Shown: positions 38,271 through 56,191 of the stretch, one piece after another
Position numbering within the stretch: the stretch's first letter is position 1
How the letters are laid out: every line of letters begins with the position of its first letter
Virus record (IMG/VR): IMGVR_UViG_3300034106_001169
Strand: one strand, 5' to 3'
DNA: 56,203 nucleotides
Origin: a virus
Taxonomy: Duplodnaviria > Heunggongvirae > Uroviricota > Caudoviricetes
Program-made: the position numbers and the translations under genes
The notes under the pieces: model-generated
The model's input: the letters and a program-made list of their open reading frames with translations, nothing else
Told to the model about the DNA's origin: nothing
Databases searched by the model: none

Positions 38271-39017
38271 ATGAACCATCCATTTATATCATGTAAATGC
38301 ATAACATATGGAAGAGTAGCCACGCTTGAGGAGAGTATTGAATCTTTCCTCAAGCAGGATTACCCTGCAGATAAATGCGAACTTATCATAGTAAATGATT
38401 ATCCCTTACAAACTCTTATATTTGAGCATCCTCAAGTTAAGGTAGTTAACCTAGTTAAGACCTTTGAGACCATAGGAGAAAAGGAAAACTATGCCACAGA
38501 GTTGTGCCAAGGAGACATTATATGTCAATGGGATGATGATGACGTGGCTCTACCAAACCATCTAAAGAACGTAGCTAAATACATGACAGAAGAAGTTAAC
38601 ATACTTCATTGGCAAACAGGTGTGCTGTGTCATGTTACAGGTATTGAGAATGTTGGTTGGATAGGTAACTCTGGTATTGTTTTTAGAAAAGCAGCTTGGA
38701 AAGCTATAGGAGGACATCCTCTTGAAAATGCTGGATATGATATGACTTTTATAGAAACCTTACATAAATATGGAGGTAGACTGTTTGCCAATCCACCTAA
38801 AGAAGAAGCTAGTTGGTTTTATATGTGGGGAGGACGTGGTTATCATATGAGTGGACAAGGTCATGATAAACCTGGTAAACTTAATGCTATTCAAAGACAC
38901 AGTGCTCACATTGAAATGGAAAGAACTATGGGAAGAGTTCCTACAGGAAATGTTCATCTTAATCCTTATTGGGAAAAAAACTACACAGATTTATTAAAGA
39001 AATATTTAAATTTATAA
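38271..39017 (+). CDS. GT2-family glycosyltransferase
   Basis: ISCKCITYGRVATLEESIESFLKQDY, LIIVND, IGEKENY, QWDDDD, GYDMTF. Confidence 0.88.
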   Translation: MNHPFISCKCITYGRVATLEESIESFLKQDYPADKCELIIVNDYPLQTLIFEHPQVKVVNLVKTFETIGEKENYATELCQGDIICQWDDDDVALPNHLKNVAKYMTEEVNILHWQTGVLCHVTGIENVGWIGNSGIVFRKAAWKAIGGHPLENAGYDMTFIETLHKYGGRLFANPPKEEASWFYMWGGRGYHMSGQGHDKPGKLNAIQRHSAHIEMERTMGRVPTGNVHLNPYWEKNYTDLLKKYLNL

Positions 39018-39018
39018 A

Positions 39019-39555
39019 ATGGCACATCCAGAACAGAGAGAATTTATGATGAGCGTAAAGGAAAAGTTTCCTGAGAAGTTTACAAATTGTAGAGTGTTAG
39101 ACGTTGGTTCATTAGATATTAATGGAAACAATAGATATCTATTTACAGATTACAAGTATATTGGTGTAGATATTGGAGCAGGGAAGAATGTAGATGTTAT
39201 ATCTAGAGGACATGAGTTTAAAGATGTTATATTGTTTGATATTGTTATATCAGCTGAATGCTTTGAACATGATGAATTCTGGAAGGACACTATTAAAAAC
39301 TGTATCAATTTAACTAAACCAGGAGGAATATTCTTATTTAGTTGTGCTACAACAGGAAGACCTGAGCATGGTACCAAAAGAAGTAATCCTCAAGACTCTC
39401 CATTTACATCAGAAATTGAGAATGATTATTACATGAATCTTACAGAGCAAGATATTCGTGAAGAGATAGACATGGAAAATCATTTCTCACAGCATGAGTT
39501 TATTGCTAGAGAAATATGGCCTCAAGACTTATATTTTTGGGGATTAAAGAAATAA
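39019..39555 (+). CDS. Class I SAM-dependent methyltransferase
   Basis: RVLDVGS, GVDIGAGKNVDV, FDIVISAECFEHD, LTKPGG. Confidence 0.88.
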   Translation: MAHPEQREFMMSVKEKFPEKFTNCRVLDVGSLDINGNNRYLFTDYKYIGVDIGAGKNVDVISRGHEFKDVILFDIVISAECFEHDEFWKDTIKNCINLTKPGGIFLFSCATTGRPEHGTKRSNPQDSPFTSEIENDYYMNLTEQDIREEIDMENHFSQHEFIAREIWPQDLYFWGLKK

Positions 39556-42467: not shown

Positions 42468-42742
42468 TTTATTTCGAATGTTATAGTTGCAGAACTTTTA
42501 ATACTTTTAGATAGATTTAGTCTAATCTGAAACAGGTTGTGTAGCTTTAAGATCTCCTGTAACAGCATATCATTATACATAGGTAATGAAGGAGCCAATC
42601 TAAAGTGATACGATAGAGGGTTTTTAGTAATCTCTAACGTAGAAAGTTCATCAACTGAGGCAATTACTCCCTCAAGGTGGGCAAAATAAGCTATTTCATT
42701 ATCTTGCATGACTTGAGGGAAGAATTTTTTATTTACTTGCAT
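42452..42742 (-). CDS. Hypothetical protein
   Basis: TAATG coupling to the upstream gene. Confidence 0.7.
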   Translation of the reverse strand: MQVNKKFFPQVMQDNEIAYFAHLEGVIASVDELSTLEITKNPLSYHFRLAPSLPMYNDMLLQEILKLHNLFQIRLNLSKSIKSSATITFEINLEDK

Positions 42743-43146
42743 TAAGACAAGGTTAATAAGTATTTAGTTTTTGCAGCTTCACCACTTAAGGCATCAGCTA
42801 AATTAACTATATCATGAAATCTATTAGTCTCACCATATGCTTTTAAGTTGCTAGCGAAGTCCATTAGTGCTGTGACAACTGAATTAGCGTCTGCACCACT
42901 CAATGCTTCTATTTTATATACACCAGGACGTTTACCTGTATAACCCATAATCTTCTCAATTACACCATCTTTGAAGTCATGTACATAATCATACAATCCT
43001 CCTAGAGCTTGATGCTCAGCATAACTCTTTGTCTGCCAATGTAATAGATGTAATTGCTCATGAAAATATGTAAGCTTCCCAGCTATTGTTTCCAAGTTTA
43101 ATTCTCCTGATTTCATCATCTCATCAGGGAATAATGATTTTGCCAT
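42742..43146 (-). CDS. Ferritin/Dps-like four-helix protein (DUF5856-like)
   Basis: HEQLHLLHWQTKSYAEHQALGGLYD...DGVIEKIMG...KTKYLLTL. Confidence 0.7.
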   Translation of the reverse strand: MAKSLFPDEMMKSGELNLETIAGKLTYFHEQLHLLHWQTKSYAEHQALGGLYDYVHDFKDGVIEKIMGYTGKRPGVYKIEALSGADANSVVTALMDFASNLKAYGETNRFHDIVNLADALSGEAAKTKYLLTLS

Positions 43147-43167: not shown

Positions 43168-43656
43168 TTATATACAACCTTCTGAATTGTTACAAGAAAC
43201 AGTTCCACCAGTGATAACAAGTCCATCATCTCCTGTTACAGCTGTAGAAGAACATACAATTGAAATTGTATCTGCTTGAATAGCTGTAGATGTAGGTACT
43301 TCACTACCACAATCTGTATATGTGTAATCAAGTGGTCCTGCTGTTTGATTGTCTACTGTATAACAGAAACATTCAGGTCCTGCAGTAGTTGTTGTTGATG
43401 TAGTGCTTGTTGATGTACTTGTACTTGTTGATGTGCTAGTGCTTGTTGATGTGCTAGTACTAGTAGTTGTTGTAGTCACTGGAGCCTCTGTAGTAGTGGT
43501 TGTAGTGGTTGTAGGATTACAACACTCGTTTGCATCTATCTCTTGCCAGTTACCAACCTTTGGTTTTGATCTTTGTAAGATCAAGCTACCTGCTATGACA
43601 CGTCCTGTACCATCGTAACGTACATATGCTTTTAATCTATTATTGCTATTTGCCAT
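43168..43656 (-). CDS. Thr/Ser-rich mucin-like protein A (conserved N-domain, T/S linker, Cys-rich C-domain)
   Basis: LKAYVRYDGTGR...KPKVGNWQEI..NECC, then about 44 residues almost all T/S, then CFCY...YTYTDC...C...C...C. Confidence 0.8.
   Translation of the reverse strand: MANSNNRLKAYVRYDGTGRVIAGSLILQRSKPKVGNWQEIDANECCNPTTTTTTTTEAPVTTTTTSTSTSTSTSTSTSTSTSTSTTSTTTTAGPECFCYTVDNQTAGPLDYTYTDCGSEVPTSTAIQADTISIVCSSTAVTGDDGLVITGGTVSCNNSEGCI
43383..43512 (-). repeat. Low-complexity ACA/ACT/AGC codon repeat encoding poly-Thr and (TS)n
   Basis: gttgttgttgatgtagtgcttgttgatgtacttgtacttgttgatgtgctagtg... Confidence 0.9.
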
Positions 43657-43668
43657 GTTTATTTAATT

Positions 43669-43935
43669 TTAACGAGGTTCAGTGGTTGTTGTTGTAGTTG
43701 TTTCTGGAGCAGCAGTCGTAGTAGTAGTTGTTGTACTTGTACTTGTGCTAGTGCTTGTACTACTTGTTGTAGTAGTTGTAGAAGGAACGTAATTGCAACA
43801 TTCATAAGCTGGGATCTCTACCCACTTACCCACTTTTGGTTTCTTTCTTCTTAAGATTAGGCTACTTGGAACGATTCTTCCAGTACCATCAAAGCGTACA
43901 TAAGCTTTGAGAGGGCGATTAGTATTCTGGGCCAT
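43669..43935 (-). CDS. Thr/Ser-rich mucin-like protein B, paralog of A
   Basis: LKAYVRFDGTGR...KPKVGKWVEIPAYECC, then STTTTTSSTSTSTSTSTTTTTTTAAPETTTTTTTEPR. Confidence 0.8.
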   Translation of the reverse strand: MAQNTNRPLKAYVRFDGTGRIVPSSLILRRKKPKVGKWVEIPAYECCNYVPSTTTTTSSTSTSTSTSTTTTTTTAAPETTTTTTTEPR

Positions 43936-43937
43936 AA

Positions 43938-44954
43938 TTAATAATTTATATTATATTTGTTTTTTAAATCTATAAGCTGTGTTAGATAGTAATGATTAGC
44001 TTTTTTCTTAGTAGTCTCATCATTAAGCACCTTATCTAAATGTGTATCTTGAAAAGGATCTTTACCAGCGTGATATGCTCCTTTATAGAAAGCAGGATAT
44101 CCCATACTGTTTTGTCCTGTAATCCCTGCATTGTGTAACAATGTTGTTCTCTCTAGCTTCTCTATAGGATCTGAAGACCAACAGAATTCCAATTCAGGAA
44201 TGTTCTTTGTTTCTTGTTCTCTAAGCCAAATGTTCCATAGCACAGCCCACATATCTGCACACCAGCTTTGAAACCCTTTGTCTTCATTTTTGAAGAACTC
44301 TTTATTTATATTCTGAAGGTAGATACGTATTAATATACAGTCATTCATCACCTTCTTCCAAAAATCAGAATCTACATTCTTTAAGAAATACTGAGCTCCT
44401 CCTGAGTGATCATTGTTAGCCTCAGCTATCTCTCTTGTTATACCAATTAAGCTTGTAAGCTCAGCTAATATGTCTCTAGTTTTGTATTCTTCCAGTTTGT
44501 CTGGTAGAACATCTCTTTCTTTACTATCAAAGTATGAAGCATTGATGTAACTATTTGTGTCAGACAAGTAGTTTATTTCATCATCCTTGAATTTCTCAAG
44601 GTCAAATTTATCAGTGAAGATTACATCACAATCACAATAAAATACTGCTTTGGTAATCATCTCAGGATGGTCCTGGAAATATCTCATTAAGCAATATGGA
44701 CGTAGGATAGGAATATAAACTCCTAAATACTTACTTACATCCCCTGAATCCTTGTAGAAAGCAAACTTTGCTTCTGGATACAGTTCCATTATCTTCTCCC
44801 ATTTACCATTGTATTCTCTAAAACTAGGTGTGTACACTAAAACAATTGCTTTGTCTGAGTGTCCAAGCTTCTTCAAGCTTTCCAACCATAGATGTACCTG
44901 CCATGTGTAATATACATCATCTGGTTGTGCACAGATAAATTTAAGATCCTTCAT
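43938..44954 (-). CDS. GT-A fold glycosyltransferase resembling plant protein O-glycosyltransferases (HPAT/GT95, SGT1/GT96)
   Basis: DDVYYTWQV, YIPILRPYCLMRYF, FYCDCDVIF (DxD), GFQSWCADMWAV, LLHNAG match, in order, the conserved blocks I recall for HPAT (DSVYSTWQC, YVVLNRPWAFVQW, AEPDHI, FGWVLEMYAY, IIHYT). Comparison is from memory, not a search. Confidence 0.6.
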   Translation of the reverse strand: MKDLKFICAQPDDVYYTWQVHLWLESLKKLGHSDKAIVLVYTPSFREYNGKWEKIMELYPEAKFAFYKDSGDVSKYLGVYIPILRPYCLMRYFQDHPEMITKAVFYCDCDVIFTDKFDLEKFKDDEINYLSDTNSYINASYFDSKERDVLPDKLEEYKTRDILAELTSLIGITREIAEANNDHSGGAQYFLKNVDSDFWKKVMNDCILIRIYLQNINKEFFKNEDKGFQSWCADMWAVLWNIWLREQETKNIPELEFCWSSDPIEKLERTTLLHNAGITGQNSMGYPAFYKGAYHAGKDPFQDTHLDKVLNDETTKKKANHYYLTQLIDLKNKYNINY

Positions 44955-44980
44955 ATATGTAGTTTGTTGGTTTCTCTTTA

Positions 44981-45118
44981 TTAAGGAGCAGGTGTGGTAG
45001 TTGTTGTTGTAGTCCCACCTTTATATAATATACCTGTAAGCTGTTCCAATTGCTTAGATATCTGCCAAAGCAAATTACTCTTTGTACTCCAGCCTATTTG
45101 TCTTGATGGTATTGCCAT
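44981..45118 (-). CDS. 45-aa protein with poly-Thr tail, paralog of the N-terminus of 45120-45983 (not in ORF track)
   Basis: [45 protein letters not shown]. Confidence 0.8.
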   Translation of the reverse strand: MAIPSRQIGWSTKSNLLWQISKQLEQLTGILYKGGTTTTTTTPAP

Positions 45119-45119
45119 T

Positions 45120-45983
45120 TTAGTAAACTTTATTTAATGTAAAGTATTCAGAATAAATTGAATTTAGAGCATCTGCTGCTCCCCATTCAACTGTAACATC
45201 TAATGTATTACTAGAAGTGGTATCAAACGTTGTGTTGTTTATTATAGAAGAATCATCTCCTTCAAATGCATTAGATGCATCTTTTGAATAAGTAAATACT
45301 ATTCCTGTCACAATAGATGCCACTCCTGCAGCTCCAATTGTTCTAACTGTAAAATTCAAATCAATAGTAAAATGCTTAGATGTAGTTTGAGGCATAGTAA
45401 TTAAACCAGTGTCTCCTAAAATAGCAGTTGCTGATTTAACTTTTATTCTGATTGTATCATTGTTTTTAGAAGAAATATGTCCAACTATTCTACCCAAAAA
45501 AGAATCTCCAATACTAAATCCATTTGCTGGAACAGATAAAGTACCCACTCCAGTTCCCACAATACTAGTTTCTGTAATGGTATTTGTAACTGTTGCACCA
45601 TCACTTGTTTGTGAAAATAATCCATACACTAAAGGATATGGAAAAGATGGAGAAGTTCCACTAGTTCCTGCAGTTCCTGCAATACCAGCTGTACCACTTA
45701 CTCCTGAACTTCCTGATTCTCCACTTGTTCCTGATGAACCATTATCACCTGAAGTTCCATTAATTCCACTAGTTCCAGACTCACCTGAAGTTCCAGACGT
45801 ACCTACAACACCACTAGTCCCTGATGTTCCTGATAAACCAGTAACACCACTAGTGCCTGACGTACCAGATCCACCACCACCTGCGTTGTATGCAACACCA
45901 TTTATAGCTTCTAATTGCTTAGAAATTTGCCATAAGAGGTTTTCTTCTGTTCCCCATCCTATCTGTCTGCTTGGTATAGCCAT
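45120..45983 (-). CDS. Collagen-like (Gly-Thr-Ser) repeat fibre protein with a beta-rich C-terminal domain
   Basis: [26 protein letters not shown]-domain, about 25 uninterrupted Gly-X-Y triplets rich in T/S, then a roughly 170-aa beta-rich domain. Confidence 0.75.
45645..45880 (-). repeat. Gly-X-Y (GTS) collagen-like tandem repeat
   Basis: [74 protein letters not shown]; boundaries approximate. Confidence 0.9.
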
Positions 45984-46002
45984 GATTGCGAAAATTAATG
46001 TT

Positions 46003-46033
46003 CAAAGATATGTTACTTTTTAATATTAACAAT
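46003..46033 (-). promoter_or_regulatory. Bacteroidota promoter for the fibre / GT / mucin-like operon
   Basis: ATTG (46030-46033)-N19-TATCTTTG (46003-46010), 20 nt upstream of the 45983 start. Confidence 0.65.
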
Positions 46034-47494: not shown

Positions 47495-48247
47495 TTATTT
47501 TTTATCTTTTTTCTCATCTGAAGTTGCATATTTAATACCCATAATTGTTCCTACAATTGAGAATGCATTAGTAAGAAGTACACTGAACATGTTAGACCAG
47601 GTTGAACCAATTATTTGAGTATCCTTATTTGATAGAATAGCAAATGAGTACATTATGGTGGTAATAAAGCCTACGCTCATAATCACGAACAAGGCAGATT
47701 TAACAATTGTTTTAATCAACTCATTTTGACTCTTTTTTATAGTTGCATCCAAATCATTTACCGCTATATTTTTTTCTATCTCTATTGCTTCTCTTAACTT
47801 ATTAGAATTATTTAACTCTGCTTGTAAAGTTTTAGATAGCTCATCTATTTTGTTTTTACTAACAATAGTTTCACTAATGTCAGTAGCAATCTTCATCACC
47901 TTAGTAATAGCACCATTCTCGTCAAAAATTGGGTTGTAAGTTGCTTGTAAGTAAATGGGGCTACCATCTATTTTCCTTCTCTCAAATTCTCCTTCATAGA
48001 ATTTACCAGCTTTTAATGTTTCCCAAAATGTTTTATATTCATCAGATTTAGAATACTCATAACTGACAAAAATACTATGATGTTTACCAATTAACTTATC
48101 ATGCTCCTCTTCACCAAAACCCATAGCCTTTAAAAAAATAGCATTAACTCCAAGTATAAAACCTTCAAGGTCAAAGTAAATAATAGCATTGCTACGATTA
48201 ATAGCCTCCATTCTACTAAATAGCTCCTCCTTTGATAAGTTTTTCAT
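47495..48247 (-). CDS. PAS-PAC domain protein with coiled coil and two C-terminal TM helices
   Basis: AINRSNAIIYFDLEG...VNAIFLKAMG...LIGKHHSIFV...FWETLKAGKFYEGEFERRKIDGSPIYLQATYNPIFDENGAITKVMKIATDIS resembles chemoreceptor (BdlA-like) PAS; no kinase or MCP output domain. Confidence 0.88.
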   Translation of the reverse strand: MKNLSKEELFSRMEAINRSNAIIYFDLEGFILGVNAIFLKAMGFGEEEHDKLIGKHHSIFVSYEYSKSDEYKTFWETLKAGKFYEGEFERRKIDGSPIYLQATYNPIFDENGAITKVMKIATDISETIVSKNKIDELSKTLQAELNNSNKLREAIEIEKNIAVNDLDATIKKSQNELIKTIVKSALFVIMSVGFITTIMYSFAILSNKDTQIIGSTWSNMFSVLLTNAFSIVGTIMGIKYATSDEKKDKK

Positions 48248-48266: not shown

Positions 48267-48872
48267 TTATATACTACCATTTAAAAGGTTATTGTATTCA
48301 TTGAAGTGTTTGATACGATCTGGAAGACCAATGGTACCACCATTAACACGTTTAGTCACCTTAGTTACCACAGCATCTGTAGCTCCCTCATCAGCGATCT
48401 TGTGTAATCCATTCTTATGAAAGAACCAAGCAGCAGATAAAAGTGGGTACTTTGTAGCTATAAGGTCTGGGTTAGCTAGGATATCATCTTCAACTGTTTT
48501 ATCAAAAGCAGCGTAGTTATCTTTCCCTGTTAACTGAATGTATCCACGTCCTCTAAACTTATAACCTTCTCCAGAAGCCTGAGGACCATTACCCATACGA
48601 TTAGCATAGACAATATTGGCAATCTTTTCAGGCTTGCGTTCAAACTCTTTAGCACTTTCAGCAGTAAAGTACTTCTTAAAAATGCTCTGTAAACCAGCAG
48701 CACCATAGTTTAAGTTCTCTGACACAGCTTTGAATCCACCTGATTCATGTCCTGTTTGTGCTAAGAAATGAGCCAAACGTAATGCTGTATTGATTTCAAA
48801 CTTATCTACTACACCAGGGATTTGTGCAATCACTGTGTCTGGAATGTGTCCTTTTAATTTATCTACGTTCAT
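48267..48872 (-). CDS. GH19 (chitinase/lysozyme-like) endolysin
   Basis: LAHFLAQTGHESGGF, ENLNY, FRGRGYIQLTGKDNY, TKRVNGGTIGLPDR. Confidence 0.93.
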   Translation of the reverse strand: MNVDKLKGHIPDTVIAQIPGVVDKFEINTALRLAHFLAQTGHESGGFKAVSENLNYGAAGLQSIFKKYFTAESAKEFERKPEKIANIVYANRMGNGPQASGEGYKFRGRGYIQLTGKDNYAAFDKTVEDDILANPDLIATKYPLLSAAWFFHKNGLHKIADEGATDAVVTKVTKRVNGGTIGLPDRIKHFNEYNNLLNGSI

Positions 48873-50294: not shown

Positions 50295-50672
50295 TTAGTA
50301 GGGTTGGTATGATTTCTCCTCTACAAACTCAGAGCCAAACTTCATATTAATTTCTTTTTTAATATGAGCCCTTTTATCATTCAATTTGTACACATTTCTG
50401 GCAAGAGTTACAAACTCCTTACTAAAGTCTTTGGCTCTTTCAAGGTCCCTAAGGTCATCTTCCACCTTCCAAAGTTCCTTGTTAATTTCAAATAGGGCTT
50501 TGGTATGAGAATAGTCTGTCATCAATGGATCCTCTTTCTTAAGGATTCCTATGAGATATGTTAACTCTTTATTAATGTTCTCCAGCTTAACTGGGTCCTG
50601 TATCTTAGATGCTTTGATCATAAGAATAGTGTACTTGTCTACCACCTCTCCAATACTTACTTCTATTTGCAT
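50295..50672 (-). CDS. DUF6165-like protein
   Basis: IEVSIGEVVDKYTILMIK...LWKVEDDLR...LARNVYKLNDKRAHIKKEIN...EEKSY. Confidence 0.8.
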   Translation of the reverse strand: MQIEVSIGEVVDKYTILMIKASKIQDPVKLENINKELTYLIGILKKEDPLMTDYSHTKALFEINKELWKVEDDLRDLERAKDFSKEFVTLARNVYKLNDKRAHIKKEINMKFGSEFVEEKSYQPY

Positions 50673-50692
50673 AAAATGTTTTTTATTTTAAA

Positions 50693-50724
50693 CAAAAGTA
50701 GTATATTTGTGGTAAATAAACAAG
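50693..50724. promoter_or_regulatory. Overlapping divergent promoters
   Basis: Minus: CTTG (50721-50724)-N20-TACTTTTG (50693-50700). Plus: TATATTTG (50702-50709), 18 nt upstream of the 50727 ATG, with a weak -33 box. Confidence 0.6.
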
Positions 50725-50726
50725 AC

Positions 50727-51161
50727 ATGATTATAGTTATTTTTGGGCAGCCTGGAGCTGGTAAGACTACAATTGCCCAGCACTTCGTTAAAGAGAACTT
50801 CCATCACATTGATGGAGACGTCCTAAGAGACATATTCAAGAACAAAGATTACAGCAGGGAAGGTAGGATTAAGAACCTAAATAGAGCTAGTGATATAGCT
50901 GTATATATGAATTCTATTTCCTCAAATGTAGTTTTATCCTTTGTCTATCCTTACGAGGAAGCTAGGGAATATCTAAGCAAGTTAACTAAAGGAGTAAAGT
51001 GGATATATCTCATCTATCAAGAAGATAGAGGCAGAGACCAGTTTAAAGTGGCAGACTTTGAGCTTCCACATATGGACGATGTAGATCTAATTATTAACAC
51101 ATCCAACACATCTGTTGAAGATAGTGTGGATCAAATCAAACATGTATGCAGAATATTCTAG
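50727..51161 (+). CDS. cysC: Adenylylsulfate (APS) kinase-like P-loop kinase
   Basis: IVIFGQPGAGKTT, IDGDVLR, DYSREGRIKNLNRA, SFVYPYEEAR, DFELP; start ATG 50727. Confidence 0.75.
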   Translation: MIIVIFGQPGAGKTTIAQHFVKENFHHIDGDVLRDIFKNKDYSREGRIKNLNRASDIAVYMNSISSNVVLSFVYPYEEAREYLSKLTKGVKWIYLIYQEDRGRDQFKVADFELPHMDDVDLIINTSNTSVEDSVDQIKHVCRIF

Positions 51162-51520
51162 CAAAAGGTAGTGGTAAATCAGGTGAGTGGGCAATGTATA
51201 TTGGTAGATGGCAACCATGGCACGCTGGCCATAGGTGGTTAATTGATCAACAACTAAACCAGGGAAAGAAGGTACTCATAGCTATTAGAGATGTAGAACC
51301 TGATGCAAAAAACCCCTGGCCTCCACAACAAGTGCTTATGAATATATCTAAAGAGTTAGGTGATCTGATTATAAAAGGCATGATAAGAATCATGATTGTT
51401 CCTGACATAGAATCAATTAACTTTGGACGTGGTGTGGGATATGATGTTATTGAACACATCCCCCCTGCTGAGATAGGTGAAATATCTGCCACTAAAATTA
51501 GAGAAGCAAATGGAAAATAG
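51146..51520 (+). CDS. HxGH (cytidylyltransferase-like) nucleotidyltransferase
   Basis: YIGRWQPWHAGH and C-terminal ISATKIR. Confidence 0.85.
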   Translation: MQNILAKGSGKSGEWAMYIGRWQPWHAGHRWLIDQQLNQGKKVLIAIRDVEPDAKNPWPPQQVLMNISKELGDLIIKGMIRIMIVPDIESINFGRGVGYDVIEHIPPAEIGEISATKIREANGK

Positions 51521-52142
51521 AATTGAGATAGTTAATCCTTACAGTAATTATATATTTAAATCACACTATGATTTTAATTTTGATATTGTAATACCTAAGT
51601 GTAAGGAACTGTTAGAATCAGCCCCATCTGAGTTTGGATTAGTAACCAATGGTGGTTCATCTCATCAAAATGCAATACAACCACATATGCTTCCTGAGCT
51701 TAAAGAATACTTTGAGTGGTTACAAATGATGGTTATTGAAGTGGCAACTAGAGGTATGGGTTATTTTAGTGACTTCCATGATATTGTTTTAACTAATAGC
51801 TGGGTGAATGTAACTCACCCTGGTGGTAAAACTCTTGGACATAAACATCCTAATACATTTATAGTAGTTTCCACGTATTTAAATGTACCTGAGAATGGTG
51901 GATTTTATGAAGCCAAAGATCCATTGGAAGATTTGAAATCTTTCTATTACAGAAATGATCCTGATTGGTATTGGAAACAAGTGCCTGTAACTAGTGGAGA
52001 TCTTCTACTATTTCCAGGGTGGCTAAAGCATAGAACACAAGAGAACAAATCTAATGAAGATAGATGGGTGTTAACCACTTCTTACGACCAAGTATTTAAA
52101 GGTGATTACTATTTAAATAATTATGACAACAAAACTTTATAA
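51510..52142 (+). CDS. 2OG-Fe(II) dioxygenase (TIGR02466-like)
   Basis: SWVN...GHKHPN...STYL...LLLFPGWLKH...RWVLTTS; HxH metal site; start MENRIE at 51510. Confidence 0.85.
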   Translation: MENRIEIVNPYSNYIFKSHYDFNFDIVIPKCKELLESAPSEFGLVTNGGSSHQNAIQPHMLPELKEYFEWLQMMVIEVATRGMGYFSDFHDIVLTNSWVNVTHPGGKTLGHKHPNTFIVVSTYLNVPENGGFYEAKDPLEDLKSFYYRNDPDWYWKQVPVTSGDLLLFPGWLKHRTQENKSNEDRWVLTTSYDQVFKGDYYLNNYDNKTL

Positions 52143-52596
52143 GTTACATTACAAGTTTGATTGGGATAAACTAAAGCCAGTGTGTGAGGAGCTAGTTAAT
52201 ATAGAAAAAGCACAAATGAATTTAGTAAGGAATGGTAAGACTTCATATGTTAATGAAATGCATCCACATACTATGGAAGAGTTTAAACCATTTTATGATT
52301 GGCTAACCATTAGTATAGGTAATGAATTCTTTGTTGGTAATAGTTGGGTTAATGTACACCATCCAGGTGGAAGTACAATAGCACACGATCATCCTAATGT
52401 ATCTATGGTATCAGCAGCTTATCTAAGCATACCTGACAACAGTGGATACTTTGAATACAAAGATGTAACATGGAAAGAGTTACCTACAGTGAGTGGTGAT
52501 GTAATAATATTTCCTGGATGGATTGAACACAGAACACAAACAAATAACTCATCAGAAGATAGATGGGTAATAACTACAAATTTTATAGCTAAATGA
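52123..52596 (+). CDS. 2OG-Fe(II) dioxygenase (TIGR02466-like), tandem paralog
   Basis: SWVN...AHDHPN...AAYL...IIFPGWIEH...RWVITTN. Confidence 0.85.
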   Translation: MTTKLYKLHYKFDWDKLKPVCEELVNIEKAQMNLVRNGKTSYVNEMHPHTMEEFKPFYDWLTISIGNEFFVGNSWVNVHHPGGSTIAHDHPNVSMVSAAYLSIPDNSGYFEYKDVTWKELPTVSGDVIIFPGWIEHRTQTNNSSEDRWVITTNFIAK

Positions 52597-53531
52597 AACC
52601 AGTCTGTTTAAACTTGGAAGAATGTAATGGATTAGGGGACCTGATATGTGCCACCCCCACCATCAAAAAACTACATGATGCATATCAAAGAAAGATTACT
52701 GTCATCTCTAAGATGCCTGAGCTATTTAAAATGAATCCCTATGTAGAGAAGAGCTATAAAGCTAGCTCTATTGATAAAGATTATTTTAATAAGAACTACA
52801 TCATGCACAACTCTTTCTATCTAGTAGGTAAGAAAGATGAGCGTGGTATAGAGATGAAGCATAACATGATGGACATCAGACAGTTCCATGCTATACATCT
52901 AGGCTTTATGCTTGGACAAGATGAGATGGAATGTTATTATAAACCTATAGAGCCTAAGAAGAATTTTATTCATGAGAAGTATATAGTTATACATCCTGTT
53001 AACAGCTGGCCTAATAGAACATGGTCCCAAGATAATTGGGTAAAATTAATTACATCTTTAACAGATATGGGATATACAGTTGTAGCTATAGGTAAAGATA
53101 GCAGTGAGACAGGGTTCTTTAATGTACAGAAACCTGTACATGATTTAGAAGGATCTAAAGTAATTAACTTAATGAACCAAACATCTATATCTGAGACATG
53201 GCATTTAATAAATGATGCTAAAGCTGTCATCACTATGGATTCTGGTATACTACATTTAGCAGGTACAACACAAACATATATCATTGAATTAGGATCTCCT
53301 ATCAATCCTGAATTTAGAACACCTTATAGAGTGGGAGTACAAGGATTTAAACACTATTATATTGGAGGAAGCTGTAACTTATTTTGTTCTTCCAATATGA
53401 AATATGCTCTTGAGTATTGGCCAACTATAGATTATGTACAGCCACTGATTGGATGTTTAGAGAATAAAGAAACATTTGAATGTCACCCTACAGTGGATAA
53501 AGTAATAGAATGTATAAAAGTAAAGATATGA
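52593..53531 (+). CDS. GT9-family glycosyltransferase (heptosyltransferase-like)
   Basis: GLGDLICATP, LFKMNPYV, YIVIHP, RTWSQDNW, VITMDSGILHLA; Cys-rich C-terminus. Confidence 0.88.
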   Translation: MKPVCLNLEECNGLGDLICATPTIKKLHDAYQRKITVISKMPELFKMNPYVEKSYKASSIDKDYFNKNYIMHNSFYLVGKKDERGIEMKHNMMDIRQFHAIHLGFMLGQDEMECYYKPIEPKKNFIHEKYIVIHPVNSWPNRTWSQDNWVKLITSLTDMGYTVVAIGKDSSETGFFNVQKPVHDLEGSKVINLMNQTSISETWHLINDAKAVITMDSGILHLAGTTQTYIIELGSPINPEFRTPYRVGVQGFKHYYIGGSCNLFCSSNMKYALEYWPTIDYVQPLIGCLENKETFECHPTVDKVIECIKVKI

Positions 53532-56191
53532 AAAAACTATTAATAATCACTCCTCATCTATCAACAGGAGGAGCCCCCCAGGTAACAGTAAATAAAGTGG
53601 AGTTACTAAAAGATCACTTTGAAGTTAAGGTGGTAGAATATTCATTCCTAGCATGGTCATTTGTTGTACAACGCAACAAGATAATTGACATGCTTACAGA
53701 GGGAGTTAACTTCCATTCTCTAGGAGAAGATAAGTTCTCTGAGCTAGTGCATATTATGTGCAGCTTCAGTCCAGATGTGGTGGTAATGGAAGAGTTCCCA
53801 GAGATGTTTATGGATGACAAGCTTACAGCATTCATCTATTCGAACACTAGAACCTGGAAGATATCTGAGACTACACACGATAGCTCATTTAATCCTAAGC
53901 ATAAGAAATGGATGCCTGATAGCTTTGTATTTGTAAGCTCTTATAACATATTTAAATATGTACATTTAGACATACCTATGGATGTAATTGAATATCCTAT
54001 AGATAAGAAGTCTAGAAACAAGGTGGAAAGACAAAAGCAATTTGGATTAGATCCTTCTTATAAACACTTTGTAACTGTAGGACTATTTACACCACGTAAG
54101 AATCAAGCCTATGCATTTGAACTAGGTAGGTATCTTAAGAACCACAAGGTTAAGTTTCACTTCCTAGGTAACCAAGCAGGTAACTTTGAAGATTATTGGA
54201 AGCCATTGATGGCTGATAAACCAGATAACTGTGTTGTGTGGGGAGAGCGTAATGATGTAAATGAATTCCTAGAAGCATGTGATGTATTCTTCTTCCCATC
54301 TAAGGGAGACAGAGGTAACAAAGAGCTTAACCCAATAGCTATTAAAGAGGCTATGCAATATGATGACTTAGTCAAAGCAATGTACAATCTAGATGTATAT
54401 TGTAACAAGTATAATGGTGAAGAGAACATGGTTTATTTAACTGGAGATATTGGTAGTGATGCTACTAGTATTGTGAAAAAACTAAACCTAGATGTATTAG
54501 ACGAGGAGTGTATCATCTTGGGCACCTATCCTAATATCAAGGACAGAGTACAGTGGACCAAGGATACTATCAACAGTCTTAAGCCATTAGGTAGAAAGAT
54601 CATCCTGTTGTCTCACTATCCTGTAGACCAAGACATACAACGTATGGTTGACTACTACATATACGATGCACATAATCCCCTAACTCACCATAGCTATTAC
54701 ACTAGGTTCTATAATGAAAGAGCAGACTACTATGCTGAGATTAACATTAATGGTTTGAAGGATAGTAATCAATCATTGACTGTATTAACTAATATATTCA
54801 ATGGTGCCAAGGCTGCTAAAGAGCTTGGATTCAAGAGGTTCTTCTACACTACATATGATGTTATATTAAATGAGAAGGATATCCCTGCAGTGAATGATGC
54901 GTTCAAGACAGATAAGAAAATTTGTGCTGCCACTCTACCCACTCCACAGGGTAAGGGAATTCAGACTAATGGTATTATGTTTGACACAGACTTCTTCTTA
55001 AAAGAGTTTGATGATGTACGTACACCAGAGCAGTGGAATGAAACATGTAAGCGTAGAAAATGTGAGAACTATCTAGAAGACTATCTATCTAAGGTGATAT
55101 TTAGTTTCAATCAAAATGATATACAATTAGTTACTAATGATAAGGATACTCTATTGATACACAGTGGATTAGGTGTAGCATCTAACAGTGAATACTATTC
55201 TATTATTCCTGTAGAAGGAAAGGCAAACTTTTACATGTTCTATTTCTTTACATACAACAGAGACAATAGAAAGATATATGTAGCCATTGGAGAAGATGTG
55301 TCTAAAAGGATTGTCCCTTCAAACATACATGAGTGGTCTTATGAGTTTGAATTCAAAGGAGAACCTATACTTGTAAGAATGGATTTCTATGATGGAGATG
55401 ATTGCTACAAGGTAGAAGAATTCAAATTAAACAAAGACACCTTACATAAATATACTAACACAGGTAAGTTTAAATGGAAGAAGAAAGATAGACCAAAGAT
55501 TAAATTAGTTCACATACAAACTACATTAAATGATGAAAGAGAACAAGCAAGCAGAGCTTCCCTTGAACAAGTCAAAGACTATGGATGGGAATATATCCTA
55601 CACACTAACGAGCCCTATAAGTCATTACCACCATCATATAACTGCATTAGACCCAGTTGTGTTTCAATGGAACTCTTCAGCGAAGAGCAAGTTCGACAGT
55701 ATGGCACTGCACTTACCCCAGCACATTATGGATGCTATGAAGCATTCAAGAATGCCATCTTAAGTGAGTTTCATGATTGTGACTTCTTAATGGTGTGTGA
55801 GGGAGACTGTATCATTGAAACAGACATACACTTTTTCATACGAAAAGTTGAGGAATGTGTACACTTAATGGGACCAAATGGTATCAACTATATGTCCTTT
55901 GGAGATAAGGATACATTAGAATATGGCTGGCCTCAGAGTCCTATGATTAAAGATATCAATGAAGACATGTATGTTACAGATCACATCATAGGTTTACAAT
56001 CTATTATGTTCCCTATATCTGTAGCAGATTATTTAAAAAATACTTTAAGAAAACACAAGTGGGATGCTGCTGATATGTATTTTAATAATATCTTTGCAGG
56101 GCCACAAATGGGTATAGTTAAGAAGAGATTTACCACCCAAGCAGATGGGTTTTCTTTAATAGACAATATGCAAAAAACATTTAGAAAATGA
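53528..56191 (+). CDS. Multidomain glycosyltransferase (N-terminal GT4/GT-B, central GT-A-like, C-terminal GT25-like)
   Basis: IITPHLSTGGAPQ, VGLFTPRKNQ, CDVFFFPS, ELNPIAIKEA; central LLSHYP...YYIYD...TTYDV; C-terminal LTPAHYGCYEAFKNAI, VCEGDC, WDAADMY. Start MKKLLI at 53528. Confidence 0.8.
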   Translation: MKKLLIITPHLSTGGAPQVTVNKVELLKDHFEVKVVEYSFLAWSFVVQRNKIIDMLTEGVNFHSLGEDKFSELVHIMCSFSPDVVVMEEFPEMFMDDKLTAFIYSNTRTWKISETTHDSSFNPKHKKWMPDSFVFVSSYNIFKYVHLDIPMDVIEYPIDKKSRNKVERQKQFGLDPSYKHFVTVGLFTPRKNQAYAFELGRYLKNHKVKFHFLGNQAGNFEDYWKPLMADKPDNCVVWGERNDVNEFLEACDVFFFPSKGDRGNKELNPIAIKEAMQYDDLVKAMYNLDVYCNKYNGEENMVYLTGDIGSDATSIVKKLNLDVLDEECIILGTYPNIKDRVQWTKDTINSLKPLGRKIILLSHYPVDQDIQRMVDYYIYDAHNPLTHHSYYTRFYNERADYYAEININGLKDSNQSLTVLTNIFNGAKAAKELGFKRFFYTTYDVILNEKDIPAVNDAFKTDKKICAATLPTPQGKGIQTNGIMFDTDFFLKEFDDVRTPEQWNETCKRRKCENYLEDYLSKVIFSFNQNDIQLVTNDKDTLLIHSGLGVASNSEYYSIIPVEGKANFYMFYFFTYNRDNRKIYVAIGEDVSKRIVPSNIHEWSYEFEFKGEPILVRMDFYDGDDCYKVEEFKLNKDTLHKYTNTGKFKWKKKDRPKIKLVHIQTTLNDEREQASRASLEQVKDYGWEYILHTNEPYKSLPPSYNCIRPSCVSMELFSEEQVRQYGTALTPAHYGCYEAFKNAILSEFHDCDFLMVCEGDCIIETDIHFFIRKVEECVHLMGPNGINYMSFGDKDTLEYGWPQSPMIKDINEDMYVTDHIIGLQSIMFPISVADYLKNTLRKHKWDAADMYFNNIFAGPQMGIVKKRFTTQADGFSLIDNMQKTFRK

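Follow-up and report, generated by a model that had tools for sequence, protein, structure and literature searches.

The virus studied here belongs to the Caudoviricetes and is represented by a DNA stretch of 56,203 nucleotides (IMG/VR record IMGVR_UViG_3300034106_001169; one strand), analyzed over its whole length and referred to as the window. An array of five genes on its minus strand (positions 43168–45983) includes a gene at 43938–44954 for a 338-residue enzyme, which is likely to be a peptide-Thr/Ser O-glycosyltransferase (GT) that decorates the phage's own proteins. A system of this kind had been proposed in an earlier note on this DNA, and the proposal is supported by direct observations: the fold model of the enzyme, a conserved DxD…His site, homopolymeric Thr/Ser tracts in the flanking genes, linkage of the enzyme gene to such genes in distant viruses, and covariation of the tracts with the enzyme.

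The five genes have the order, strand and coordinates given in that note, and are separated by intergenic gaps of 1, 26, 2 and 12 nt. The first two encode a collagen-like fibre of 287 residues (45120–45983) and a 45-residue poly-Thr peptide (44981–45118), the long and short forms of what are referred to here as class-A carriers. The enzyme gene follows, and after it two genes for class-B carriers of 88 residues (43669–43935) and 162 residues (43168–43656). The latter are indeed paralogs, with a common N-terminus of 46 residues. The whole window was surveyed in six frames for open reading frames (ORFs) with a run of at least six Thr or Ser residues, at least four of them Thr. Only four ORFs qualify: three are neighbors of the enzyme gene, and the fourth is a 34-residue ORF 8.8 kb away. 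The tracts are encoded by mixed synonymous codons (ACA, ACT, ACC and ACG for Thr; AGT, AGC and TCA for Ser) and are not DNA microsatellites. The mixture indicates selection on the protein, and rules out DNA slippage as the origin of the tracts.

The AlphaFold2 model of the enzyme has high confidence scores (predicted local distance difference test, pLDDT, 97.4; predicted template modelling score, pTM, 0.94) and shows a GT-A glycosyltransferase. Among reviewed predicted structures the top match is Arabidopsis SGT1, a peptidyl-serine galactosyltransferase of family GT96 (E 1e-9, template modelling (TM) score 0.59). The next matches are HPAT1/2/3, PLENTY, RDN1/2 and NOD3 of family GT95, the hydroxyproline O-arabinosyltransferases, with TM scores of 0.59–0.62 over residues 2–332. 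GT8 enzymes rank below these models, with TM scores of about 0.45. The two computational outcomes that the earlier note would have counted as refuting, a non-peptide GT as best structural match and homologues without linkage to Thr/Ser-rich genes, were both looked for and not obtained. HPAT-like domains also dominate a cluster search of the AlphaFold Database, once the family's own uncharacterised members are set aside. The nearest solved structures are those of glycogenin (Z score 14.8), LgtC (14.1), Skp1 alpha-galactosyltransferase (13.9), UGGT (13.9) and GlyE (13.2), and WbbM is also found among the neighbors. The first five of these are retaining enzymes of GT8/GT24, and several of them act on proteins. 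Of the HPAT/SGT-like character claimed earlier, the fold and the DxD motif stand, while the Pfam HPAT sequence model is not matched. As judged from the model, the enzyme resembles GT95 and GT96 at the level of the fold only, and cannot be filed in either family.

By sequence, the enzyme belongs to phrog_4417 (function unknown; E 1.4e-54). Its family comprises 771 representative homologues at 50% clustering and 2313 clusters at 90%, all of them unnamed, and is found in at least 583 viral loci. The five blocks that had been likened, in the same order, to those of HPAT are all present: DDVYYTWQ (residues 12–19), YIPILRP (80–86), CDCD (107–110), WCADMW (231–236) and LHNAG (273–277). They coincide with invariant or near-invariant columns of the family, at Trp18, Tyr80, Arg85, Asp108, Asp110, Asp234, His274, Ala276 and Gly277. 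In 66 homologues the invariant residues are Tyr80, Asp108, Asp110, Tyr136, Gln229, Phe257, His274, Phe289 and Lys291, and this DxD…His…Lys arrangement is the pattern expected of a metal-dependent GT-A enzyme. Some homologues are fused to additional GT domains (GT6, GT2, GT32-type and GT7C) and to methyltransferases, as would be expected of enzymes that build glycans.

Other sequence searches give little. The enzyme has no Pfam match at E≤1, Glyco_transf_8 included, and the family profile, run against the sequences of solved structures, yields chance-level matches only. Nor does the Pfam HPAT model have a match in the closest complete genome on record (G001, 115,851 bp, 83–98% identical to the window across the common part), in a weak search in which the named control genomes are also without HPAT. 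A near-identity search with the 2.9-kb stretch finds nothing among GenBank phages. In genome collections, the closest matches to the enzyme are contigs of metagenome-assembled genomes of Bacteroidota (Sediminibacterium, Cytophagales and Saprospiraceae).

The genomic neighborhood of the enzyme gene was compared in three divergent clades. The window clade was sampled in 80 viral contigs, with enzymes 66–98% identical, and the other two clades with profiles of their own. A locus was counted as linked if a poly-Thr ORF lies on the same strand within 600 bp of the enzyme gene, and ORFs more than 1.5 kb from the gene served as background. In the window clade, 75 of 81 loci are linked, and 157 of 417 near ORFs are poly-Thr, against 8 of 5507 far ORFs. 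A clade of Firmicutes prophages has 78 linked loci out of 84, with poly-Thr ORFs making up 85 of 430 near and 14 of 5818 far ORFs. For the third clade the corresponding numbers are 39 of 80 loci, 41 of 312 near ORFs and 54 of 3807 far ORFs. The background share of poly-Thr ORFs is 0.15–0.24% in the first two clades, where such ORFs are roughly 80 to 250 times as frequent near the gene; in the third clade the factor is about 10. The association with Thr-rich neighbors that had been suspected from a single genome is therefore found in three divergent clades, as well as in all ten cultured-phage contexts that were examined. In the window clade the order is constant, with class-A genes upstream of the enzyme and class-B genes downstream, and the carriers range from 44 to 537 residues, with tracts that are also variable in length.

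Nearly all tracts of the Firmicutes clade (145 of 148) are found no more than 12 residues from the C-terminus of the protein. The proteins tagged in this way include major head proteins of unrelated families (phrog_840 and phrog_29) and major tail proteins (phrog_238 and phrog_14018). This distribution over unrelated families indicates that the tract itself is recognized, rather than a leader.

The ten cultured-phage contexts (phiFL1A, Semele, bIL285, MA9V-3, vB_SpsS-DH5, phiCTP1, Planchet, TPWB06, R3.3 and ENFP1) all have a Thr-rich tail beside the enzyme gene. Their hosts include Enterococcus (phiFL1A), Lacticaseibacillus (R3.3), Clostridium (phiCTP1), L. plantarum (Semele) and Chryseobacterium (MA9V-3). 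In phiFL1A, phiCTP1, R3.3 and prophages, C-terminal Thr tags are found on annotated major head and tail proteins, with the GT gene between or beside them, and in small temperate phages the gene is located inside the head-tail module. No GT2 or GT4 domain is present in five complete small phage genomes that carry the enzyme. It is the only recognisable phage GT in those five, and thus plausibly an initiating one.

Some of these phages show variations of the tag. In Levilactobacillus phage ENFP1 (L369:5386-5979), the gene that precedes the enzyme gene encodes a protein whose end consists of about eight Thr-rich repeats of the (APTTV) type instead of a homopolymer; from this sequence, the acceptor code may be broader than pure Thr runs. 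Staphylococcus phage vB_SpsS-DH5 (L366:623-1744) and Arcanobacterium phage TPWB06 (L370:918-2039) encode a 373-residue protein, a head maturation protease by the TPWB06 annotation, with three internal runs of 7–8 Thr near residues 319–344. Both phages also encode a tail protein with a tag and, next to the enzyme, a small protein with poly-Thr.

The tags and the enzyme also vary together. Loci were fetched with head and tail proteins from which the Thr tags had been trimmed off, and 44 unique head-to-tail intervals were obtained. In 28 of them both tags, on head and tail proteins, occur together with the enzyme; in 15 none of the three is present, and the remaining interval has a tail tag only. 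In the loci lacking the enzyme (among L251–L350), the orthologous major head and tail proteins are, with that one exception, without the Thr tag: they stop just before its position or, in several cases, continue into a longer C-terminal part of immunoglobulin (Ig)-like appearance. This suggests that the surface can be decorated in either of two ways, with glyco-tags or with Ig-like domains.

The carriers in the window are built from a conserved N-terminal module and a variable, Thr/Ser-rich remainder. The fibre has a conserved N-terminus of about 30 residues, a collagen-like region and a head of about 155 residues with a predicted β-sandwich fold (pLDDT 78). It is a Gly-Thr-Ser collagen-like protein, as had been read from the sequence: it matches Pfam Collagen (E 3.5e-12) and tail-fibre PHROGs 5073 and 366, and has 25 unbroken G-X-Y triplets (residues 37–111), of which 13 have Thr as X and 18 have Ser as Y. 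There is no Pro in the triplets, and 69% of the non-Gly positions are Thr or Ser. The head has no significant match among folds of the Protein Data Bank (PDB); the best are weak matches to lectin-like folds (TM score at most 0.41, E above 1e-3), and C1q/TNF-like domains could not be matched in this search, in which all matches are weak. Atlas look-ups of the head and of the 162-residue protein return only uncharacterised viral clusters. The place of the fibre gene ahead of the enzyme gene is conserved in 17 related loci.

The 45-residue peptide has its first 30 or so residues in common with the fibre, and ends with seven Thr followed by PAP. An alignment of 11 orthologues shows that the N-terminus, a run of 7–9 Thr and the terminal Pro are all kept, and the short form is found upstream of the enzyme in at least 53 related loci. 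A double-glycine leader was considered for the class-A peptides and rejected, as it is not conserved. The 46-residue N-terminus of class B, seen in the 88-residue protein, has the pattern LKAYVRxDGTGR...KPKVGxW...ECCN and is followed there by poly-Thr/Ser. In the 162-residue protein it is followed by a run of eight Thr, a 31-residue Thr/Ser tract, the longest in class B, and a Cys-rich C-terminal domain. Related loci contain at least 65 class-B ORFs downstream of the enzyme.

Several observations weigh against a peptide O-glycosyltransferase that acts on these tracts. The enzyme matches no curated GT family by sequence, and the Pfam HPAT profile (PF23452) is touched by 2 of 66 family members, with a best E of 0.012. 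The predicted fold is compatible with more than one kind of acceptor, as the solved neighbors include the lipo-oligosaccharide enzyme LgtC. Linkage is looser in the third clade, where about half of the loci are linked and poly-Thr ORFs also occur farther off. The covariation is strong, yet it may reflect just two or three evolutionary events, and the single contig with a tail-protein tag and no enzyme (L261 / L310) departs from it. The 45-, 88- and 162-residue carriers have no detectable kinship to known virion proteins in Pfam or PHROG or, for the 162-residue protein, in the atlas look-up. The earlier description of four virion-type proteins consequently holds for the fibre, with its tail-fibre matches, and for the three small proteins a place on the virion is presumed. 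Poly-Thr can serve as a mere flexible linker. Finally, the long chromosomal homologues described below are without poly-Thr neighbors.

The looser linkage and the exceptional contig would also be expected if the Thr/Ser tracts were unmodified linkers, or were modified by the host, and the GT-like protein acted elsewhere (for example on host proteins) or were inactive. Poly-Thr linkers do occur in many proteins without dedicated enzymes. However, where tags of 7–20 Thr form the very C-terminus of a head or tail protein there is nothing for them to link, the family keeps its DxD, His and Lys residues invariant, and the enrichment near the gene is substantial even in the third clade. This explanation is considered highly improbable.

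In another explanation, the acceptor is not a protein: the enzyme would glycosylate bases of the phage DNA, or glycans of the host's wall or outer membrane, and the poly-Thr genes would be unrelated structural neighbors. The window contains other sugar-related genes, all on the plus strand: a GT2 (38271–39017), a methyltransferase (39019–39555), an APS-kinase-like protein (50667–51161), two 2-oxoglutarate (2OG)-Fe(II) oxygenases (51477–52596), a GT9-like protein (52593–53531) and an 893-residue protein with a GT4 domain (53510–56191). Both LgtC and WbbM act on glycans, and phage GTs commonly modify DNA or the host serotype (PMC12619734). Against a non-protein acceptor, the tags and the enzyme are gained and lost together, the gene lies within the head-tail modules of small temperate phages, no base hydroxymethylase is found among the window proteins scanned, and the best fold matches are peptide-directed enzymes. 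A non-protein acceptor thus appears quite unlikely. As judged from their sequences, the other sugar-related genes may serve to extend, hydroxylate or sulfate glycans or fibres; no gene for sugar-nucleotide synthesis is seen.

Homologues of the enzyme are also found on chromosomes. Ten long, fused ones (479–829 residues) come from Chitinophaga, Sphingobacterium, Mucilaginibacter and relatives, and all ten adjoin lanthipeptide-type genes, encoding a LanB dehydratase, a LanC-like protein, HlyD and an ATP-binding cassette (ABC) exporter with a C39 peptidase. None of the ten has a poly-Thr neighbor, and poly-Thr is therefore not the sole acceptor of the family. Precursor candidates with Ser/Thr/Cys-rich cores are present in three of four loci checked, as tandem ORFs of 68–85 residues with leaders of the double-glycine type. 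By gene content, this setting independently ties the family to peptide modification. The loci (L355–L365; for example L356:618-10576, L359:120-7419 and L362:2462-7690) contain LanB N- and C-terminal domains and also GT2, and are candidates for undescribed glycosylated RiPPs (ribosomally synthesized and post-translationally modified peptides) of Bacteroidota.

By analogy with these clusters, the small carriers in the window could be precursors of released or intracellular glycopeptides, with the N-terminal modules as leader or recognition segments and the Thr tracts as the core. Their small size (45–162 residues), conserved N-terminus and variable tail would suit such precursors, as would the lack of a virion-protein signature. 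The phage operon, however, has no C39 exporter, dehydratase or cyclase, the class-A module is common to the fibre with its tail-fibre matches, and the Firmicutes tags are placed directly on unrelated major head and tail proteins. A RiPP-like role of the carriers is therefore regarded as unlikely.

For a peptide O-glycosyltransferase that decorates the phage's own proteins, the following mechanism can be proposed. The enzyme would act in the cytoplasm of the infected cell, as a soluble, metal-dependent GT-A protein, take a host nucleotide sugar, and start O-linked glycans on Thr (and probably Ser) of the homopolymeric tracts. The two class-A and two class-B proteins encoded on either side of it would be the likely acceptors. 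These carriers would be held on the particle by their conserved N-terminal modules, and their Thr/Ser tracts would display the sugars. In the fibre, glycosylated Thr might in addition stabilise the proline-free triple helix. The nature of the acceptor, initiation by this enzyme, its sugar donor, linkage and processivity, and the presence of the small carriers on the virion are all inferred from the observations given above.

The phage is crAss-like, as judged from its sequence. Terminase, portal and head genes are located at the start of the window, and the terminase is nearest to those of the crAss-like Cellulophaga phages phi17:2 and phi4:1, of crAssphages and of a Leptolyngbya phage. The partial major head protein (3–1064) has no Thr tag. 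The complete record G001 (L245:1330-7295; L246:11667-17312; L247:866-8473) has giant collagen-like fibres of G-S/T-S repeats, with 1531, 453 and 560 residues, and a virion structural protein of 1881 residues with poly-Thr linkers. With these linkers and repeats elsewhere in the genome, the acceptor set is probably wider than the five-gene operon and includes fibres and large virion proteins, whose poly-Thr linkers would be further acceptors.

A promoter-like site is present at 46003–46033, where the earlier note placed a promoter. On the minus strand this segment reads TTG, 20 nt and TATCTTTG, ends 19 nt from the ATG of the fibre gene, and fits the –33/–7 type of Bacteroidota. Of 67 related loci, 43 have the –7 motif, TAnnTTTG, ahead of their first class-A gene, most commonly with a spacing of 19 nt to the ATG. 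A scan for sigma-70 promoters finds no match on this strand in the segment, and is at chance level overall. The site is thus promoter-like by motif match only. At the other end of the array, 21 nt downstream of the carrier genes, is a gene for a DUF5856 protein (42742–43146, minus strand; phrog_858, annotated 'starvation-inducible transcriptional regulator'). Judging by this arrangement, the operon probably continues beyond 43168 into the DUF5856 gene, which is likely cotranscribed. Elsewhere, in the lysis region, an unusual sensor-like gene for a PAS-domain protein with C-terminal hydrophobic segments (47495–48247, minus strand) adjoins the endolysin gene (48267–48872).

A more general statement has about an even chance of being correct. 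In this statement, poly-Thr is a portable, encoded glycosylation tag that is read by one widespread, unclassified family of peptide O-glycosyltransferases, distantly related to GT95 and GT96. Phages of Bacteroidota, Firmicutes and Actinomycetota would use it on capsids, tails, fibres and small carriers, and Bacteroidota would use the family in lanthipeptide pathways; the tag and the enzyme would be gained and lost together, alternating with Ig-like domains. If this is true, a Thr run next to a phrog_4417 gene predicts phages with glycosylated particles, a set that would take in abundant crAss-like phages from the environment together with cultured ones that infect Enterococcus, Lactococcus, Lactobacillus, Staphylococcus, Clostridium and Chryseobacterium. 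Glycans on a virion can change its recognition by antibodies, its stability, how it adheres to mucus or biofilm, and its host-range behavior, which would matter for the ecology of phages and for how therapeutic and dairy phages are chosen. The family would also be a bacterial and viral branch of peptide O-glycosyltransferases known from plants, likely a new CAZy family, and the tag and the enzyme would form a compact pair for glyco-engineering. The link to lanthipeptides points to undescribed glycosylated RiPPs.

Among known enzymes, the closest predicted folds are those of the plant and algal HPAT1-3/PLENTY/RDN (GT95) and SGT1/SERGT1 (GT96) proteins, which have the same order of conserved blocks, including DxD. 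GT95 enzymes transfer arabinofuranose to hydroxyproline and GT96 enzymes transfer galactose to Ser, in extensin-type peptides, and thus act directly on hydroxy-amino acids of repetitive, low-complexity peptides. They are type II membrane proteins of the Golgi. In comparison, the phage enzyme has no membrane anchor (its residue 2 aligns to residues ~60–70 of HPATs), the sequence identity is 10–13%, and the phage tracts contain Thr and Ser and no hydroxyproline. With the GT8/GT24 enzymes (glycogenin, LgtC, Skp1 alpha-galactosyltransferase, UGGT, and GlyE of the pneumococcal pathway for serine-rich-repeat proteins), the phage enzyme has in common the DxD…His metal site, with Z scores of 13–15 over 220–250 aligned residues. 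Several of these modify proteins or glycoproteins in the cytoplasm or endoplasmic reticulum. The identity is 8–12%, however, there is no Glyco_transf_8 match, and the TM scores are under those of the GT95/GT96 models.

The fibre can be compared with BclA of the Bacillus exosporium nap, in which the collagen-like repeat region is O-glycosylated; proline-poor collagens with glycosylated Thr are also known. BclA and the fibre are built alike: G-X-Thr/Ser triplets lie between an N-terminal module for anchoring (a presumed role in the fibre) and a C-terminal β-sandwich head. For the head of the fibre, whose PDB matches are all weak, no match to a C1q/TNF-like trimerising domain is found, and BclA is glycosylated by enzymes of other families.

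The closest functional counterpart is found in mycobacteriophages. A literature search found no report of an HPAT-like enzyme in phages or of Thr-tagged head or tail proteins, which is weak evidence since most subscription journals were outside the search. Phages Che8, Corndog and Myrna are reported to encode GTs and to have virion O-glycans on their capsid and tail-tube subunits, at the C-terminus in each case (Freeman et al. 2023, Cell Host Microbe 31:1216, as cited in PMC12619734). The Firmicutes clade is similar, with Thr tags at the C-termini of head and tail proteins and a GT gene nearby. The enzyme family is different, and no Mycobacterium phage is found among the 77 phage records with a homologue. 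The hosts here are Bacteroidota and Firmicutes, and the acceptor would be a homopolymeric Thr/Ser tag. Moreover, the window phage would use small dedicated carriers and a collagen-like fibre instead of tagged capsid and tail subunits. The proposed system would be of the same kind as virion O-glycosylation in mycobacteriophages, and differs from it in its enzyme family, in its homopolymeric Thr tag and, in this phage, in its dedicated carriers and fibre.

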